Source: Heptranchias perlo (lineage: Eukaryota). Taken from it: a stretch of 64,000 nt of DNA. Below the pieces are notes generated by a model that made no database searches, had not been told where the DNA came from, and saw nothing but the letters and a program-made list of their open reading frames with translations. Below, in pieces: positions 23,951 to 53,998 of the stretch (within the stretch, counting starts at the first letter, position 1; every line of letters starts with the position of its first letter). Made by a program: the position numbers and the translations under genes. The stretch lies in NCBI RefSeq assembly GCF_035084215.1, contig NC_090326.1:11160001-11224000 (forward strand). The letters are read 5' to 3'.

Positions 23951-24559
23951 CATCTTCTCAAACAACAAAAAAACAAAGAATAAACATAGTTCAGAACACT
24001 AGACTTTGTATCATAACTTGGCTTTACTGCACACATATATATTTACAGCATGCTTCTTATTACCATCAAGTCTCTCTGCGTTGCTCTTAACCCTATCTTG
24101 GTGCTCCGCCAAGATGATAAGTTAGGGCCAAAGACACCAGCAGTGTTTGGCTGCGCTGTGGTATCATGAGCTTCTCGAGCCCAGTAGGACTCTTCAGCAT
24201 GCTGCATGGACATTGCAGCTTTGTGAGCAGCCTATTCCTGTATCCTGACACCTACATGAGCAGGCATCTGAGCGGGCTGGCTAGGAAGGTCACATGAGCT
24301 GCCACCTGGAGAGAGGATAGAATCCTGAAGGTGGATTTTGTACTGTGTTCTAGATCTGAATGCCATCTCATCAGCAGGGGCGAAGACCTGATGGTATCAG
24401 TTAGATCCTGCAGACCCTGAGAGATGTTGCCCTGAAGCTGTTGAAAGTCACTTTCCATCTTCGGCCTGGGGTTTCTGACATTAAGATCGGGATTCGGGGT
24501 GAGTGGAGGAGGGGGGCGGTGAGGGACATTGAGATCAGGACTCGGTGTTGGGACACTGA

Positions 24560-25515
24560 AATTGGAATGGGGGGGGTCGGGAATTTGGGACTGGGGGGGG
24601 GGGGGTCAGGAGACTGGGACTGGAGGGGGCGGTCAGGAGACTGGGACTGGGGGCGGTCAGGAGACTGGGACTGGGGGTGGTCAGGAGACTGGGACTGGGG
24701 GGGGAGGTCGGGAGACTGGGACTGGTGGGGAAGGTCAGGGGACTGGGACTGGTGGGGGGGGTCGGGAGACTGAGACTGGGTGGGAGGGAGGTCGGGAGTC
24801 TGGGACTGTGGGGGGAGGTTGGGAGTCTGGGACTGGGGGGGGGAGGTCGGGAGTCTGGGACTGGGGGGTGTCGGGAGTCTGGGTCTGGGGGGGGGATCGT
24901 GAGACTGGGACTGGGGAGGGGGGACGGGAGACTGGGACTGTCGGGGGAGGTCGGGAGTCTGGGACTGGGAGGGGAGGTGTTGGGAGTCTGGGACTTGGGG
25001 GGAGGTCGGGAGACTGGGACTGGGGGGGGGGAGGTCGGGAGTCTGGGACTGGGGGCGGGAGGTCGGGAGTCTGGGACTGGGAGGGGAAGTGTTGGGAGTC
25101 TGGGACTGGGGGGTGTCGGGAGACTGGGACTGGGTGGGGATTTGGGGGACTGGGGGGGTGATCGGGGGACGGGGTGGGCGTCGGGAGACTGGAACTCGGG
25201 GGGGGTCGGGGGACTGGGACTGGGGGGATGGGTCGGGAGACTGGGACTTGGCGGGGGGGTCGGGAGACCGGGACTGGGGGGGGGTCGGGAGACCGGGACT
25301 TGGGGGGGGGGTCGGGAGACCGGGACTGGGTGGGGTCGGGAAACAGGGACTGCGGGGGGTCGGGAGACTGGGACTGGGGGGGTCGGGAGACTGGGACAGG
25401 AGGAGGGTAGGGAGATTAGGACTGTGGGGGTGGGGTTGGGAGACTTGCACTGGTGGTGGGGGGGGGGATCGGGAGACTGGGCCTGGGGGGGGCGTCGGGA
25501 GAGTGGGACTGGGGT
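24560..25515. repeat. G-rich minisatellite, ~25-bp unit GTCGGGAGACTGGGACTGGGGGGG(AG)
   Basis: About 35-40 tandem units estimated from length/period; explains the Gly/Pro-rich pseudo-ORFs 24401..25531. Confidence 0.95.
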
Positions 25516-25519
25516 CCTG

Positions 25520-25669
25520 ATCCATTGCTGATTTCAGGCAGCTGCCAGATCCGCCTAAAAACAGTGAGGGCCAACAGCGCAGATTAGGTGCAGGACCTTA
25601 CGCCCAGGAATTGGTATGCATTGCGCCCGCTTTATGCCCGAAAAACGGGCCCCTGGCAAGTTCTACCCC
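25520..25669. mobile_element. Harbinger-like MITE terminal segment
   Basis: CpG-rich, ending ..gcaagttctacccc, similar in style to the right ends of the MITEs at 40379 and 63951. Confidence 0.35.
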
Positions 25670-27185: not shown

Positions 27186-27307
27186 CAAGTGGCACTGCAT
27201 TGTTTGAATCCTTCTTAGATATTGGCACTGAGGATGGCATTTATCTCCAGCATAACCCCTGCTATCTGTCTCAGGTCCTCGAGATGGTCCTCAGCACCCT
27301 ATCCACT

Positions 27308-30300
27308 CTCCCCACCCCCACGTGCCCCTCACTCCCCCACTATGTGCCCCTCACTCCCCCCAAGTGCCCCTCATTCTCTCCCCCCCACGTGCCCCTCACT
27401 CTCTTTTTCCCCCATGTGCCCCTCACTCTCTCCCACACTACACGTGCCCCACTCTCTTCCCCCCCACGTGCTCCTCACTCTCCCCCTCCTCCCACCCCAC
27501 GTGCCCCACTCTCTCCCCCCCCATGTGCCCTTCACTCTTTTCCCTCCCCACGTGCCCCTCACTCTTTCCCTCCCCACGTGCCCCTCACTCTCTCCCCCCC
27601 CACGTGCCCCTCACTCTCCCCCTACCCCCACCCCACGTGCCCCACTGTCTCGCCCCCACGTGCCCCTCACTATGTCCCCCACCACGGGCCCCTCACTCTC
27701 CCCCCCTCCCCCCACCCCACATGCCCCACTGTCTCCCCGCCACGTGCCCCCCACTCTCTCCTCCCCACGTGCCCCTCACTGTCCCCCACCCCACGTGCCC
27801 CTCACTGTCCCCCACCCCACGTGCCCCTCACAATCCTCCACCCCACGTGCCCCTCACTCTCCCCCACCCCACGTGCCCCCCACTGTCCCCCACCCCACGT
27901 GCCCCTCACTCTCCCCCACCCCACGTGCCCCTCACTCTCCCCCACCCCACGTGCCCCCCACTCTCTCCACCCCACATGCCCCTCACTCTCCCCCACCCCA
28001 CGTGCCCCTCACTCTCTTTTCCCCTCACGTGCCCCTCACTCTCTTCCCCCCCCCAGGTGCCCGTCACTCTCTCCCCCCCCACCAGGTGCCCCTCACTCTC
28101 TCCCCCGCTAGGTGCCCCTCACTCTCTTCCCCCCACCCCCAAGGTGCACCTCACTCTCTATCCCCCCCCCCAGGTGCCCCTCACTCTCTTTCTCCCCCCC
28201 CCAGGTGCCCCTCACTCTCTCCCCCCTCCCCACGTGCCCCACACTCTCTTCCCCCCCCCAGGTGCCCCTCACTCTCTTTCTCCCCCCCCCCAGGTGCCCC
28301 TCACTCTCTCCCCCCTCCCCACGTGCCCCACACTCTCTTCCCCCCCCAGGTGCCCCTCACTCTCTTTCTCCCCCCCCCAGGTGCCCCTCACTCTCTCCCC
28401 CCTCCCCACGTGCCCCACACTCTCTTCCCCCCACAGGTGCCCCTCACTCTTTCCCCCCCCCAGGTGCCCCTCACTCTCTCCCCCCCCACCAGGTGCCCCT
28501 CACTCTCTCCCCCCCTCCCCACGTGCCCCTCACTCTCTCCCCCCTCCCCACCTGCCCCTCACTCTCTCCCCCCCACGTGCCCCTCACTCTCTCCCCCCCC
28601 ACTCTCTCCCCCCCATGTGCCCCTCACTCTCTCCCCCCCACGTGCCCCTCACTCTCTCCCCCCTACGTGCCCCTCACTCTCTCCCCCCCACTCTCTCCCC
28701 CTCACGTGCCCCTCACTCTCTTCCCCCCCCCAGGTGCCCGTCACTCTCTCCCCCCCCCACCAGGTGCCCCTCACTCTCTCCCCCGCTAGGTGCCCCTCAC
28801 TCTCTTCCCCCCACCCCCAAGGTGCACCTCACTCTCTATCCCCCCCCCCAGGTGCCCCTCACTCTCTTTCTCCCCCCCCCAGGTGCCCCTCACTCTCTCC
28901 CCCCTCCCCACGTGCCCCACACTCTCTTCCCCCCACAGGTGCCCCTCACTCTTTCTCCCCCCCCCCAGGTGCCCCTCACTCTCTCCCCCCTCCCCACGTG
29001 CCCCACACTCTCTTCCCCCCCCCAGGTGCCCCTCACTCTCTTTCTCCCCCCCCCCAGGTGCCCCTCACTCTCTCCCCCCTCCCCACGTGCCCCACACTCT
29101 CTTCCCCCCACAGGTGCCCCTCACTCTTTCCCCCCCCCCCAGGTGCCCCTCACTCTCTCCCCCCCCACCAGGTGCCCCTCACTCTCTCCCCCCTCCCCAC
29201 GTGCCCCTCACTCTCTCCCCCCTCCCCACCTGCCCCTCACTCTCTCCCCCCCACGTGCCCCACACTCTCTTCCCCCCACAGGTGCCCCTCACTCTTTCTC
29301 CCCCCCCCAGGTGCCCCTCACTCTCTCCCCCCTCCCCACGTGCCCCACACTCTCTTCCCCCCACAGGTGCCCCTCACTCTTTCCCCCCCCCCCAGGTGCC
29401 CCTCACTCTCTCCCCCCCCACCAGGTGCCCCTCACTCTCTCCCCCCCTCCCCACGTGCCCCTCACTCTCTCCCCCCCTCCCCACCTGCCCCTCACTCTCT
29501 CCCCCCCCACGTGCCCCTCACTCTCTCCCCCCTACGTGCCCCTCACTCTCTCCCCCCCACTCTCTCCCCCCCACGTGCCCCTCACTCTCTCCCCCCCACG
29601 TGCCCCTCACTCTCTCCCCCCCACGTGCCCCTCACTCTCTCCCCCCACTCTCTCCCCCCCACGTGCCCCTCACTCTCTCCCCCCCACGTGCCCCTCACTC
29701 TCTCCCCCCCACGTGCCCCTCACTCTCTCCCCCCCACGTGCCCCTCACTCTCTCCCCCCCATGTGCCCCTCACTCTCTCCCCCCCACGTGCCACTCACCT
29801 CTCTCCCCCCACGTGCCCCTCACTCTCTCCCCCCCACGTGCCCCTCATGCGCTCTTCCCCCCACGTGCCCCTCACTCTCTCCCCCCCACGTGCCCCTCAC
29901 TCTCTCCCCCCCACGTGCCCCTCACTCTCTCCCCCCCCACGTGCCCCTCACTCTCTCCCCCCCACGTGCCCCTCACTCTCTCCCCCCCACGTGCCCCTCA
30001 CGCGCTCTTCCCCCCACGTGCCCCTCACGCGCTCTTCCCCCCATGTGCCCCTCACGCGCTCTTCCCCCCACGTGCCCCTCACTCCCTTTTCCCCCACGTG
30101 CCCCTCACTCTCTTCCCCCACGTTCCCCTCACTCCCTTTTCCCCCACGTGCCCCTCACTCTCTTTTCCCCCACGTGCCCCTCACTCTCTTTTCCCCCCAC
30201 GTGCCCCTCATGCGCTCTTCCCCCCACGTGCCCCTCACTCTCTTCCCCACTTGTCCCTCACTCCACCCCCCCCCACCCTCCTCCCCCCCCCCGCCTCCTC

Positions 30301-30315
30301 TTGCCCCTCACTCTC
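27308..30315. repeat. C-rich minisatellite, ~26-29-bp unit CCCCACGTGCCCCTCACTCTCTCCCC (CAGGTG variant in the middle)
   Basis: Roughly 100 units estimated from length/period; explains the 1031-1035 aa Pro-rich pseudo-ORFs open in several frames. Confidence 0.97.
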
Positions 30316-30584
30316 TTGGACTTTATTAAAACTACCTTACATCATTTTACATCATTCTCCTGTCCCTACTCTGCCCATCTTTACATTTTTAACTGTCAGA
30401 AAAGAGTTCTTACATGAGTGTATCCAAGCATAAACAGAGTTCTCTCCTAAACAGGATAGTTGAAGTTCCATCTCGGTAGAAACTAAGCACTGTAAACAGG
30501 GTTCTACCTGGCTGGAGCCCAAACTGCAGCGTTCCTTCTCAGACCAGTAATTAAAACACAGTTTGACTTCAGTCAACAGCAATA

Positions 30585-42636: not shown

Positions 42637-43316
42637 TACTGTATTCGCTGCTCACAATGTGGTCTCCTTTACATTGGAGAGACCAAACGCAGATTGGGTG
42701 ATCGCTTTGCTGAACACCTACGCTCTGTCTGCAAGCATGACCCTGACCTTCCGGACGGTTGGCATTTTAATTCCACGACCCACTCCCACTCTGACCCCTC
42801 TGTCCTCGGCCTCTTACACTGTTCCAGTGAAGCTCGACGGAAACTCGAGGAACAGCACCTCATCTTTCATTCAGGCACTTTACAACCTTCCGGACTCAAC
42901 ACTGATTTCAATAACTTCAGATCATAACCACTGCTCCCATTTTTTTTTCCCACTTTTTTAATTATTTATTGGACTGCAGATGCTGGTAATGGTTCTGCTG
43001 TGGCCATGCACAGCTCCCCTAGACCAATCTTTTGTTTCTTCACTTGTCCCATTACACCCTCCTTGCCTGGCACCATCATCCCTTTTCTCATTTAATCACT
43101 CTTGCCCTCTATTCTATCACAGACCTTCCCTTATGTTCTTTCTTTCCCTCCCCTCCCTCTCCTCTTTTCCTGGCTCTGTACTTGCTTAAAAAACTTTAAC
43201 TCTTTAACATCTTCCAGTTCTGATGAAAGGTCTTCGACCTGAAACGTTAACTCTATTTCTTTCTCCACAGATGCTGCCTGACTTGCTGAGCTTCTCCAGC
43301 ATTTTCTGTTTTTATT
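42637..43316 (+). mobile_element. Penelope-like retroelement, 5'-truncated: GIY-YIG endonuclease C-terminus plus terminal repeat
   Basis: YCIRCSQCGLLYIGETKRRLGDRFAEH..HFN..H..RKLEEQHLIF..GTLQPSGLN, stop at 42927. Imperfect ~17-bp TSD ataaagagatattagga (42620-42636) / ataggagatgttagga (43317-43332). Confidence 0.93.
43216..43252 (+). ncRNA. minimal hammerhead ribozyme motif (Penelope-type)
   Basis: AGUU-CUGAUGA-A-AGGUC(UUC)GACCU-GAAA-CG-UU-AACU: canonical core, 5-bp stem II, 4-bp stem I, palindromic ACGU in place of stem III. Confidence 0.78.
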
Positions 43317-48294: not shown

Positions 48295-49147
48295 GGTGAT
48301 GGGGGATCAGAGACCCCAACTCTCAGGGTGATGGGGGATCAGAGACCCCAACTCTCGGGGTGATGGGGGATCAGAGACCCCAACTCTCAGGGTGATGGGG
48401 GATCAGAGAGCCCAACTCTCGGGGTGATGGGGGATCAGAGAGCCCAACTCTCGGGGTGATGGGGGATCAGAGAGCCCAACTCTCAGGGTGATGGGGGATC
48501 AGAGAGCCCAACTCTCGGGGTGATGGGGGATCAGAGAGCCCAACTCTCGGGGTGATGGGGGATCAGAGACCCCAACTCTTGGGACGATGGGGAATAGAGA
48601 GCCCAACTCTCGGGGTGATGGGGGATCAGAGAGCCCAACTCTCGGGGTGATGGGGGATCGGAGACCCCAACTCTCAGGGTGATGGGGGATGAGAGAGCCC
48701 AACTCTCGGGGTGATGGGGGATCAGAGAGCCCAACTCTCGGGGTGATAGGGAATCAGAGAGCCCAACTCTCGGGGTGATGGGGGATCAGAGACCCCAACT
48801 CTCGGGATGATGGGGGATGAGAGAGCCCAACTCTCGGGGTGATGGGGGATGAGAGAGCCCAACTCTCGGGGTGATGGGGTATCAGAGAGCCCAACTCTCG
48901 GGGTGATGGGGGATCGGAGACCCCAACTCTCGGGATGATGGGGGATCGGAGACCCCAACTCTCGGGGTGATGGGGGATCAGAGATCGCAATCTCGGGGTG
49001 TTGGGGGATCAGAGCCCAAATCATGGGGCACAGGGGATCAGAGAGCCCAATGTCGGGGTGATGGGGGATCAGAGACCCCAACTCTCGGGGTATTGGGGGA
49101 TCAGAGCCCAAATCATGGGGCACAGAGAGCCCAACGCTTGGGCTCTC
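48295..49147. repeat. 32-bp minisatellite GGGGTGATGGGGGATCAGAGAGCCCAACTCTC
   Basis: About 26 head-to-tail units estimated from length/period; degenerate at the right end; no unique spacers. Confidence 0.96.
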
Positions 49148-49659
49148 GATGTGGGAACCATCGTTTGGCAATTGGAAAATTTCCCGACAGCCAGTCCTAC
49201 CCTGCTCGTGAGTTAAAACATTTTTTTATAGGCTCACAGGGAAATAAGACACTCAACTCCAGGGGACCAACCTTTATAAGGTAAATGGAATAACAGTTGC
49301 AAACTGCGGGCTGGTGTCACATGATCGAGTGTCATGTGATCAAACCTTCAGCAATACATTCACCAGAATTGGCAATTCTACCCCAGACTAACCTTGCCAG
49401 AGTTGCTAAGGCCGACCTCAGGGGAAACCTTTTTTTTCACCGGGCTTCACCAGGAAATCTAGAAGGTTTACTGTGAGGTTGCTACTGGCTGCACAACACC
49501 CGAATGTTGGGAGCCAGTGGCTCTACCACCTCAGTGCAATATAAAAACAGCTTAGGTTACTGCAAATGTTTTTTATTACTGTATAACATATGGTACTTGC
49601 ATGCACCTATAGGCAACTGCTAAAGATTGTGACCATTTTACAAGGATTTATCTATGGAC

Positions 49660-50711: not shown

Positions 50712-52402
50712 GAGGAATAGCAGAGATGTTAAACAAATATTTTATATCTGTCTTCACAGTAGAAGACACAAAAAACATACCAGAAATAGTGGAGAACCAA
50801 GGGTCTAATGAGGGGGAGGAACTTAAACTAATTAAGATTAGTAAAGAAAAAGTTAATGGGACTAAAAGCCAACAAATCCCCTAGACCCGATGGCCTGCAT
50901 TCTATGGTTTTAAAAGAGGGGGCAGCAGAGATACTAGATGCATTGGTTGTGATCTTACAGAATTCCCCAGATTGTAGAACTGTCCCAGCGGATTGGAAGG
51001 TAGCAAGTGTAACCCCGCTATTCAAGAAAGGAGGGAGAGAGAAAACAGGGAACTACAGGCCAGTTAGCCTGACATCAGTCGTCGGGAAAATGCTGGAATC
51101 CATTATTAAGGAAGTGGTAACAGGGCACTTAGAAAATCATTATATGATTAGGCACAGTCAACACGGTTTTATGAAAGGGAACTCATGTTTGACAAATTTA
51201 TTAGTTTTTAGAGGATGTAACTAGCAGGGTAGATAAGGGGGAACCAGTAGATGTAGTATATTTGGATTTTCAAAAGGCATTCGATAAGGTGCCACATAAG
51301 AGGTTGTTACACAAGATTAGGGCTTGTGAGATTGGGGGTAATATATTAACATGGATTGAGGATTGGTTAATGGACAGAAAACAGAGAGTAGGAATAAACA
51401 GGTCATTTTCAGGTTGGCAGGCTGTAACTAGTGGGGTGCTGCAAGGATCAGTGCTGGGGCCTCAGCTATTTACAATTTATATTAATGACTTAGATGAAGG
51501 GACAAGTGTAATGTATCCAAGTTTGCTGACTATACAAAGCTAGGTGGGAAAGTAAGCTGTCAGGAGGACGCAAAGAGTCTGCAAAGGGATATAGACAGAT
51601 TAAGTGAGCGGGCAAGAAGATGGCAGATGGAGTGTAATGTGGGGAAATGTGAGGTTATTCACTTTGGTCGGAAGAATAGAAAAACAGAATATTTTTTAAA
51701 TGGTGAGAAACTATTAAATGTTGGTGTTCAGAGGGATTTGGGTGACCTTGCACATGAAACACAGAAAGTTAACATGCAGATACAGCAAGCAATTAGGAAG
51801 GCAAATGGTACTTTATTGCAAGGCAGTTCGAGTACAAGAGTAAGGAAGTCTTGCTACAATTGTACAGGACTCTAGTAAGAGTCCTGGAGGACTTGCAGTT
51901 TTGGACTCCTTACTTAAGAAAGGATATACTTGCCTTAGAGCCGGTGCAGTGAAGATTCCTGGGATGAGAGGGTTGTCATATGAGGAAAGATTGAGTAAAT
52001 TGGGCCTATACTGTCTGGAGTTTAGAAGAATGAGAGGTGATCTCATTGAAACATATAAGATTGACAGGGTAGATGCTGAGAGGATGTAGAGTCTAGAGCT
52101 AGGGGACATAGTCTTAGGATAAGGGTTCGGACATTTAGGACTGAGATGAGGAGGAATTTCTTCACTCAGAGGGCTGTGTATATTTGGAATTCTTTACCCC
52201 AGAGGGCTGTGGATGCTCAGTTGTTGAGTATATTCAAGACTAAGATGGATGGATTTTTGGACTCTAGGGGAATCAAGGGATATGGGGAACGGGCGGGAAA
52301 GTGGAGTTGAGGCCGAAGAAAGAGCCATGATCTTATTAAATGGCGGAGCAAGTTTGAGGGGCCGAATGGCCTACTCCTGCTCCTATTTCTTACGTTCTTA
52401 TA
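50712..52402 (+). mobile_element. CR1 ORF2 RT domain to 3' tail (frameshifted)
   Basis: [66 protein letters not shown]; tail gccgaatggcctactcctgctcctatttctta. Confidence 0.95.
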
Positions 52403-53425
52403 GTATGTGGCAGATAAGCCCCATAGAAGAAAAATAATTTTAAAATGAGGCCATGTCTCTTCTATAGTGGCTTTGCATACAGTAAGTCATTCTAAACATA
52501 AACTGACAAAATGGAATTGGCCGTTAACAGTGCAGTTGTTCCTTCTGAGTTGAAGTGAGGTTTTGAATGAATATTTTCCATATACTGAAGAGCTCCCAAC
52601 TTTTTTGACGATAGGAATTTGCTTTGATTTAAAAAACATGTGTTCCTCAATAGGTTATTTGTTCCTCATTGAGCCCTGAATACATTCTGATTTTGTCTTA
52701 CCAGCATGGGGGAAGCAATATTGGATGGTGGGGCATTTTAGTTGCGTCCATTCCACTTTTGGTGAGCATAAGCCTTGTGCCAGTTATCTATTGCTGGCCC
52801 ACATTAGGGGAGAAAAGTCCTGGGTTACTGTTCCTGGTACAACTCCTTCATTTGTATCTGCATCTGTGGGGAAATGCAATTGATTTTCTCCGCCCATGAA
52901 GCTCCTGATATTTTGCGTGAGAAGACACAAAGCAGGCGTCAGGCAATTGCTCACAGTGAGAAAATCCGAGTGGTGAAAGCATCCATGCTGCTTTCATGCA
53001 GCTCCTAGCGGCTCCCTATAAAGCAGCATTGACGGAGGCCTGGGGTGAGATCTGGCCTTTAAGGCAACGTGAGAGAAAGGGAGAAAATGTTGTTTTTGAA
53101 AAAAGAAAGGGGATTGCACTGATAATGGGAAGTTGGTGACTGGAAGAATGCTGTGTGTGAGGATTCAGAGAACTGAAATGGCAGAGGGAGTCAGAGCCTG
53201 CAGTGTTATCTGGAGTGGGGTTTTATGATCTGACAGGTAATAAAAGCAAGCCTGCGAGCAGTGAGTGTATTTAGCAGGTCATACACAACTCTGACCATGG
53301 TAATGTTCAGCATTTAGAGCACTAAGTGTTTTGACATGCAGCGTTAGCCCCAGATTTATGATGTTGAGGTGTCATTGCTTGAATGCTATTGCTCAAACAG
53401 CCTGACCTCAGTCTCTAATGATCAA

Positions 53426-53659
53426 GATGTGGAGATGCCGGTGATGGACTGGGGTTGACAATTGTAAACAATTTTACAACACCAAGTTATAGTCCAGCAA
53501 TTTTATTTTAAATTCACAAGCTTTCGGAGATTTTCTCCTTCCTCAGGCAAATGTTTCAGGAGCTCTTGAAACATTTGCCTGAGGAAGGAGAAAATCTCCG
53601 AAAGCTTGTGAATTTAAAATAAAATTGCTGGACTATAACTTGGTGTTGTAAAATTGTTT
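53426..53659. mobile_element. young Penelope-derived palindromic insertion with TSD
   Basis: 194-bp palindrome 53466-53659 with one G/T mismatch (53559/53566) and central gagctc; 40-bp unique leader; TSD ctaatgatcaa at 53415-53425 and 53660-53670. Confidence 0.88.
53573..53613 (+). ncRNA. minimal hammerhead ribozyme motif (mirror copy on minus strand at 53512-53552)
   Basis: AUUUGC-CUGAGGA-A-GGAGA(AAA)UCUCC-GAAA-GC-UU-GUGAAU: core boxes, 5-bp stem II, 6-bp stem I with two G.U pairs, palindromic AGCU. Confidence 0.68.
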
Positions 53660-53856
53660 CTAATGATCAAAACATTGTAAATAGCTGGTTACTAAAGGAA
53701 TAGCTAACCGTCTAACTCCCAATTGTCACATTTTCCTGCTTATGAAAAGTTTTTCTCTGTTTAATTAGAGCTAATGTTCCATAATCAATAATCAATGCAC
53801 AGTAATAGCTTTCTGATTCAAATTAACGAGGTTTCACAATTAAAATCACAGTAACT

Positions 53857-53998
53857 TACGGGGAGCGGGCAGGAAAGTGGACATGAATTTAGATTTGAGG
53901 TTAGGATCAGATCAGCCATGATCTTATTAAATGGCAGAGCAGGCTCGAAGGGCCGATTGGCCTACTCCTGCACCTATTTCTTATGTTCTTATGTTCTT
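53857..53998 (+). mobile_element. CR1 3' tail only
   Basis: ttacggggagcgggcaggaaagtgg..gatcagccatgatcttattaaatggcagagcaggctcgaagggccgattggcctactcctg..ttcttatgttcttatgttctta. Confidence 0.88.

Follow-up and report, generated by a model that had tools for sequence, protein, structure and literature searches.

A young, non-coding mirror-image insertion in Heptranchias perlo, made of two head-to-head leader copies of a Penelope-like element and likely twin-primed in origin

Penelope-like elements (PLEs), the sister group of telomerase reverse transcriptases (RTs), leave insertions of a published layout, in which an inverted truncated end, a tail on one side only, palindromes at the junctions and a target duplication occur together (PMC3846280, PMC8557442). 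The structures of Penelope in D. virilis and its promoter have also been described (PMC2377424). How the tandem and inverted structures of PLEs are formed is named as an open task in PMC8557442, and in PMC3846280 the junction palindromes are read as a product of self-priming, a model of the fold-back kind. Tail is used below as defined in PMC11167929 and PMC3846280, and endonuclease-bearing (EN+) PLEs and their clade-specific linkers as defined in PMC8557442.

The protein of PAc, a Poseidon element of Anolis carolinensis, cuts and extends both strands in vitro (PMC11167929). In that system two RT start sites bound the tail, one of them located at a stem-loop, and the start site is alike on both strands, which is counted against strand-specific sites. 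The protein is a predicted dimer and uses uncleaved RNA, the hammerhead being positioned upstream and not needed (PMC11167929). As for the ribozymes themselves, pairs of hammerheads on opposite strands, 100-700 bp apart, have been attributed to truncated PLEs, and minimal hammerheads are weakly active, needing dimers or a partner on the same strand (PMC4209133).

We analysed a 64,000-nucleotide stretch of H. perlo DNA (the window) and found in it a mirror-image insert of 233 bp, or 234 bp with the last T, which is common to the element and the repeat. It is the only palindrome listed by a scan of the window for arms of at least 25 bp. The arms (53466-53562 and 53563-53659) measure 97 bp each, are separated by no spacer and differ at a single position (53559 G vs 53566 T). 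A first-pass annotation had reported this 194-bp spacerless palindrome with its one mismatch, as well as direct repeats of 11 bp (12 with the shared T), and both are confirmed here (Table 1). What it took for a 40-bp leader does exist as an unpaired stretch of that length, but is really the 3' tail of the RNA-sense strand, that is, a PLE tail, and it ends one base before the parent ATG (+123). The insert consists of two head-to-head copies of the 5' leader of an abundant Penelope-like element. Its arms reproduce the leader of a coding parent exactly, which bears out the earlier suggestion of an extremely truncated Penelope insertion; as they match the parent without a mismatch, the insertion is very young. 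An inverted 5'-truncated end, a one-sided tail of 30-40 bp and a target duplication, which together characterise EN+ PLE insertions, are all present. The insert is thus real, young and non-coding, the by-product of an element of known kind.

Table 1. Features of the insertion (positions are those of the window)
Feature	Position	Strand	Remarks
Left target-site duplication, 12 bp	53414..53425	+	Direct repeat TCTAATGATCAA
40-bp Penelope tail, unpaired	53426..53465	-	Parent +83..+122, between two inferred RT start sites
Tailed arm	53426..53558	-	Parent leader -11 to +122, mismatch-free
Minimal type I hammerhead, tailed arm	53512..53552	-	Predicted cut after 53518; from pairing and energy
Junction, 10-bp parent near-palindrome AGGAGCTCTT	53558..53567	.	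Contains the sole arm mismatch
Untailed arm	53558..53659	+	Parent leader -20 to +82, mismatch-free
Minimal type I hammerhead, untailed arm	53573..53613	+	Predicted cut after 53607; from pairing and energy
Right target-site duplication, 12 bp	53659..53670	+	Direct repeat TCTAATGATCAA

In the 3.25-Gb assembly we counted 13,669 exact matches to a 33-base pattern that represents the hammerhead core. Among the first 100 of these (four being left out as repeat copies of one locus, L079) are direct tandems 3,081 bp apart with a hammerhead in each unit, and one locus (L061) carries three hammerheads at the same 3,081-bp spacing together with two complete, identical-looking open reading frames (ORFs) of 902 aa. 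The parent ORF contains an RT domain (RVT_1, E = 3e-10) and the motifs DKG, YIDD, a CX4CXXC linker (residues 753-761) and VY..C...C...YIG. The last of these marks a GIY-YIG with two cysteines between GIY and YIG; this assignment is motif-based, and Pfam at an E-value of 0.01 did not call a GIY-YIG domain in the protein. A PDB sequence search with the 902-aa protein at the same threshold (E 0.01) gave no match and no relative of solved structure. In parent numbering, where +1 is the first C of CCTGAGG, a TATA box at -39 (-38 in one haplotype) is followed by the hammerhead and then by the RT and GIY-YIG ORF, whose ATG stands at +123. A single ORF with RT (DKG, YxDD) plus GIY-YIG at its C-terminus, and tandem pseudo-LTRs carrying a hammerhead, are what is expected of an EN+ PLE, and the CX2-5CxxC linker between RT and endonuclease that is typical of the Neptune/Nematis clades is present as well. 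By the definitions of PMC8557442, therefore, the parent is, on its linker motif, an endonuclease-bearing PLE of Neptune/Nematis type. An assignment to Penelope/Poseidon was dropped, as that clade lacks the linker zinc finger whose motif the parent has. Contigs of four presumed-RNA runs cover the parent, such contigs carrying no start, strand or cleavage information.

A second family, B, likewise has an intact 902-aa ORF (L156, 788-3496, minus strand), with a different spacing from promoter to ribozyme. Judging from these ORFs, at least two lineages, the parent family and family B, would have been recently active. Older families (L191-L220) have the downstream leader in common and very different promoter regions; 16,688 tailed arms match the leader pattern.

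A complete minimal hammerhead motif in each arm, as claimed in the first-pass annotation, was found with its pairing in both: stem I of six pairs, including two G-U pairs, then CUGAGGA, one additional A, a five-pair stem II and GAAA, with a loop-less helix III (AGCU) and a predicted cut following CUU. The hammerhead pattern used has two matches in the window, both in the insert; an Rfam search considering matches up to E = 10 (30 in all) returned no hammerhead, the best being sub-threshold miRNA hairpins. Stems I and II stay paired through substitutions in 72 long arms, which are related copies rather than independent ones, pair 5 of stem I being broken in 15 of them, and the hammerhead fold thus appears to be conserved in the parent families. 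A single arm in a plain fold does no better than shuffles (z = -1.45; 22/200). The whole element, folded as RNA, reaches -157.4 kcal/mol (z = -26.5), a stability equalled by none of 200 shuffles. Constrained to the hammerhead fold it reaches -88.0 kcal/mol, a penalty of ~69 kcal/mol, which makes the switch between rod and ribozyme envisaged in the first-pass annotation unlikely, and the ribozymes in the mini-element are predicted to be passengers. A small hairpin precedes the untailed end, and substitutions at pair 6 and, in one case, at pair 5 leave its pairing intact. Around this hairpin (53439-53496, minus strand; parent +52..+109), two short complementary pairs, seen with a search pattern of fixed letters, interleave in the manner of an H-type pseudoknot, which may be a protein-binding structure setting both start sites.

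The first search for sister insertions returned 40 scored candidates, ranked by likeness to the query, and all 40 were near-full-length look-alikes of the insert. Nearly all of the 30 examined have a target duplication of their own; their arms are constant, their centres are variable, and diagnostic variants are mirrored in both arms. The exact centre of the window insert is found at nine genome places, amounting to eight independent insertions, and relative to this centre the tail lies on the left in four and on the right in four, unlike the copying of one master unit. The two places counted as one (L003 and L004) have identical flanks, are separated by 183 kb of the window's contig and represent either a segmental duplication or an assembly duplicate. 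It had been proposed that a genome-wide search with the centre junction would reveal a family if many copies shared the centre, and ordinary truncation and inversion if the centre was unique and fold points varied. The search does return the nine places, but with centres that vary and a shared centre lying four times each way it defines no family; the opposite outcome is largely what is seen, with fold points that vary among near-identical copies, although the centre is not unique.

The general layout of the window insert is shared by 343 insertions. In the first 50 of these, read by eye, the commonest centre is AAGATCTT (19 copies), a perfect palindrome of the commonest parent haplotype, and AAGCTT is the centre in 16 of the first 50 of 224 shorter copies, also by eye. 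Centres sit at self-complementary spots of the parent and follow its haplotypes; the same centre was found on two hammerhead haplotypes, each mirrored in both arms. Both forms of the window centre can be read as the two strands of a 10-bp duplex with two mismatches, and the fully corrected form occurs as well. Many joints contain short templated insertions, which are typical of microhomology-mediated end joining. Genome-wide, a looser pattern that includes related families counts 5,518 pairs with 6-36 bp between cores, and the spacing of pairs grades from 10 bp to 3 kb and more while the ends stay unchanged. In 11 long pairs (L062 and L067/68, which are complex, omitted) the two arms differ by 0-0.6% over the part that they share, compared with medians of 2.0-4.9% between insertions. 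At one of these loci (L075) an arm of another insertion was closer than the partner arm, and at three (L063, L064, L066) equally close.

The 3' ends of the arms are bimodal. Among 96 arms, sampled by position on one contig and with end calls that include chance matches and target microhomology, 51 end at +81..+89 and 37 at +119..+129, five are internal to tandems and three are other. Head-to-head pairs, whether short or kilobases long, have one tailed and one untailed arm in 27 of 28 cases (p = 1e-7 against 0.5), these 28 being the pairs with both ends readable out of 30 loci (the second end of L062 and L109 was unreadable). In an older family, half of 30 tailed arms (15) are accompanied by an inverted arm no more than 1.5 kb upstream, and all but one of these inverted arms are untailed (14/15). 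Target duplications measure 11-14 bp in 56 of 59 rows and exactly 12 bp in 34, short and long pairs alike; two of the remaining three rows are mis-paired extras of loci that have a correct row too. The parts follow one another on the top strand in a constant order (duplication, then the antisense arm, the sense arm and again the duplication), as expected if both nicked 3' ends are extended with antisense cDNA. Exceptions exist: one locus has the tail on both arms (L128), one of family B has it on neither and carries a third, tandem hammerhead core (L173), and one-armed insertions with duplications occur. This indicates that twin priming is not obligatory.

From these genome patterns we consider it probable that the insert arose in one twin-primed event, with both nicked strands priming RT and the short cDNAs annealing at the near-palindrome. 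The endonuclease, likely as a dimer, would nick the two strands 12 nt apart, as the constant duplication suggests. Priming by one 3' end would occur at about +122 to +126, just before the ATG, and yield the tail; the second 3' end would prime at about +82 to +89, where the small hairpin has its foot. The two clusters of arm ends are observed, and priming would account for them. As both cDNAs are antisense, they would face each other. They would derive from the same source, possibly one RNA molecule, and the level ends together with the haplotypes common to both arms hint at a single molecule read twice. The cDNA ends could then pair at any self-complementary spot of the leader. In the window copy the ends probably annealed at the junction near-palindrome, where the parent sequence -20..-11 would pair along 10 bases, with mismatches at two of them, and the strands of this heteroduplex would give rise to both centre forms seen in the genome. 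The product is predicted to be a dead end, being devoid of the TATA box and locked in a 97-bp rod, and it is likely a by-product that arises afresh with every insertion, not a ribozyme element that spreads by itself.

In the twin priming of L1, both target strands prime as well, and the inversion lies inside the target duplication. In L1, however, the second primer acts further 5' and the two parts do not overlap, whereas here the starts are ~35-40 nt apart and the same sequence is covered twice. Whether these steps amount to a two-primer rule for PLEs in general, namely an RT-endonuclease dimer with a 12-nt stagger, a single RNA copied twice from fixed sites 35-40 nt apart and cDNAs joined head to head, we regard as evenly balanced. 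If true, the rule explains three traits of the whole class: its inverted pseudo-LTR, its palindromes at the junctions and the restriction of the tail to one side.

The 5' stops of the arms bear on the template. The first-pass annotation was right that truncation is extreme, but it is not random: of 102 family A arms sampled, 46 extend as far as the TATA box, and the other 56 end within the 39 nt that separate this box from the core. These stops peak at -9, which is 30 nt past the first T of TATAAA (14/56). In family B the TATA box is at -45 or -43, and 38 of 48 arms stop short of it, six of them at -16 (TATA+29) and 13 at -14..-18, although the highest single bin is -6 (7/38) and not -16; some of these stops are partner arms or haplotype mis-calls, and a few arms were put in the wrong family. 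The -16 stop falls on TCATTT, presumably an initiator-like motif. Genome-wide, 6,864 arms pass the TATA box, about half of the core matches, the two being counted with different patterns. The position of the stops follows that of the TATA box, not that of the ribozyme, which suggests run-off at the RNA start; the comparison of the two families (Fisher p = 0.04) is a weak one, with windows chosen post hoc. The stop point 29-30 nt past the TATA box is likely the RNA start, and the distribution suggests run-off there in cases where the protein starts at the sites in the first leader. Among the very short insertions, the class that is most frequent would have arisen in this way. Run-off alone does not explain the window copy, which reaches -20, upstream of the -9 peak; extending 11 nt upstream of the run-off point on one arm, it would belong to the palindrome-joined class, and its source may have been a read-through RNA or a minor upstream start. 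If the two-primer rule is true, thousands of mini-palindromes map the RNA start, and the hammerhead lies only a few bases past the cap.

Several other origins have to be weighed against a twin-primed one. In fold-back self-priming, a tail-primed cDNA folds on a palindrome, copies itself and stops before the tail, after which central deletions make the arms unequal. This accounts for identical arms and for joints at hairpin-like spots, and it agrees with the level 5' ends in three of the 11 long pairs (within 14 nt) and in L076-L080, as well as with the full hairpin joint of the parent, present in three of the first 50 centres (of 343). Against this, a simple fold-back cDNA is never longer than its template and cannot yield a longer untailed arm, yet it is the untailed arm that extends further upstream in six of the 11 long pairs (the tailed one in two). 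An untailed cDNA cannot template a tail, so that only later deletion rescues the model; long spacerless palindromes may indeed lose part of one arm, and equal arms could in this way become unequal. The untailed end is moreover the end of solo untailed arms with duplications of their own, which suggests that it acts as a priming site, and the centre in the window leaves an intramolecular fold without a loop and is found either way round, 4:4. We therefore find fold-back unlikely, though not to be neglected. The assumption that the palindrome is an assembly artefact or due to chance carries a negligible probability: spacerless palindromes are prone to mis-assembly, but this one is bounded by a clean 12-bp duplication, its tail is asymmetric, independent loci show the same central mismatch, and it has 343 look-alikes.

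Very unlikely, too, is a self-contained non-autonomous family of MITE or retrozyme type, as the first-pass annotation had considered, in which palindromic RNA made from masters, perhaps able to alternate between rod and ribozyme, would be put back in one piece by the Penelope protein. The 40 look-alikes, with duplications of their own in nearly all of the 30 examined, would fit it, as would the frequent recurrence of some centres, and non-LTR retrozymes have been reported from Penelope ends (bioRxiv 10.64898/2026.07.22.740005). Those look-alikes were, however, picked for likeness to the query, and variable centres, with an asymmetric centre occurring both ways round, do not make a constant unit of the MITE kind; the arms copy a coding parent, one centre sits on two hammerhead haplotypes with variants mirrored in both arms, and sizes form a graded series (spacings of 10 bp to 3 kb) in which the ends do not change. 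The insert moreover lacks the TATA box, its ribozyme fold lies 69 kcal/mol above the rod, and the head-to-tail units with hammerheads on the same strand by which retrozymes are defined are absent from it. That a hammerhead cut of the RNA sets the 5' end of the copied template seems to us extremely unlikely. The paired stems of the 72 long arms suggest that the fold is conserved, and 224 pairs join in or behind the core, with two of the first 50 joining within 2 nt of the predicted cut on both arms. Both window arms, on the other hand, hold the whole core plus 11-20 nt upstream, most of the 50 listed joints retain bases 5' of the cut, pairs joined upstream of the core number 5,518 against the 224 (a rough ratio, from different patterns), and cleavage is unnecessary in PMC11167929. 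Twin priming thus remains the reading that we prefer.

The value of the insert, itself an ordinary by-product, lies in the data that it offers on PLE insertion. The family is very young, has intact ORFs and has left thousands of insertions with clean boundaries, whose ends lead to exact, testable predictions on cut stagger, both priming sites and RNA start. Hairpins of this type are also liable to be mis-annotated as MITEs, miRNA precursors or retrozymes.

Elsewhere in the window, 42637-42909 holds an old fragment of the endonuclease domain of another PLE (38% identical to the protein of the parent across 94 aa). There are long tandem arrays, C/T-rich and G-rich, as well as an array with a 64-bp period, at 27300-30320, 24400-25600 and 48295-49156, and the open frames in them seem to be due to low complexity. 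At 52281-52401 and 53857-53992 an abundant repeat end is present twice, the copies being 83-90% alike and one of them lying 186 bp to the right of the insert.

Among known systems, the insert is closest to PLE insertions such as Pen2a_Av, which share with it head-to-head 5'-truncated pLTRs, an optional tail of 30-40 bp, joint palindromes, a target duplication and a TATA-like box (PMC3846280, PMC8557442). Unlike Pen2a_Av and the other PLE insertions described in PMC3846280, it is devoid of any ORF sequence, and the duplication is almost fixed at 12 bp, compared with 8-10 bp in the rotifer cases of that paper. The asymmetry of the tail is counted here (27/28), unlike in the accounts given in PMC3846280 and PMC8557442, where the layout is explained by self-priming or endonuclease resolution and not by two primers. 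Our search of openly accessible papers found nothing on a two-primer model or a shark mini-family of this kind.

The stem-loop of PMC11167929 resembles the small hairpin before the untailed end. PAc, however, belongs to the Penelope/Poseidon clade, whereas the parent here has a linker of the Neptune/Nematis type, and the start sites lie inside the ORF in PAc but in a 5' leader ending at the ATG here (PMC11167929). The main text of that paper does not link extension of both strands to inverted arms, a point on which its figures S1-S2 may bear.

As regards the ribozymes, the minimal hammerheads of metazoan PLEs (PMC4209133) have the same loop-less palindromic helix III and the same extra nucleotide before stem II. 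In contrast to the opposite-strand pairs of that survey, the two hammerheads here are 30 bp apart within a rod in which neither is predicted to be able to fold. Non-LTR retrozymes (bioRxiv 10.64898/2026.07.22.740005) are likewise short, non-coding and derived from PLE ends, with a type I hammerhead. They are, however, head-to-tail tandems with two ribozymes on one strand, whereas the units here stand head to head, with one ribozyme per strand and no sign of a lineage of their own.
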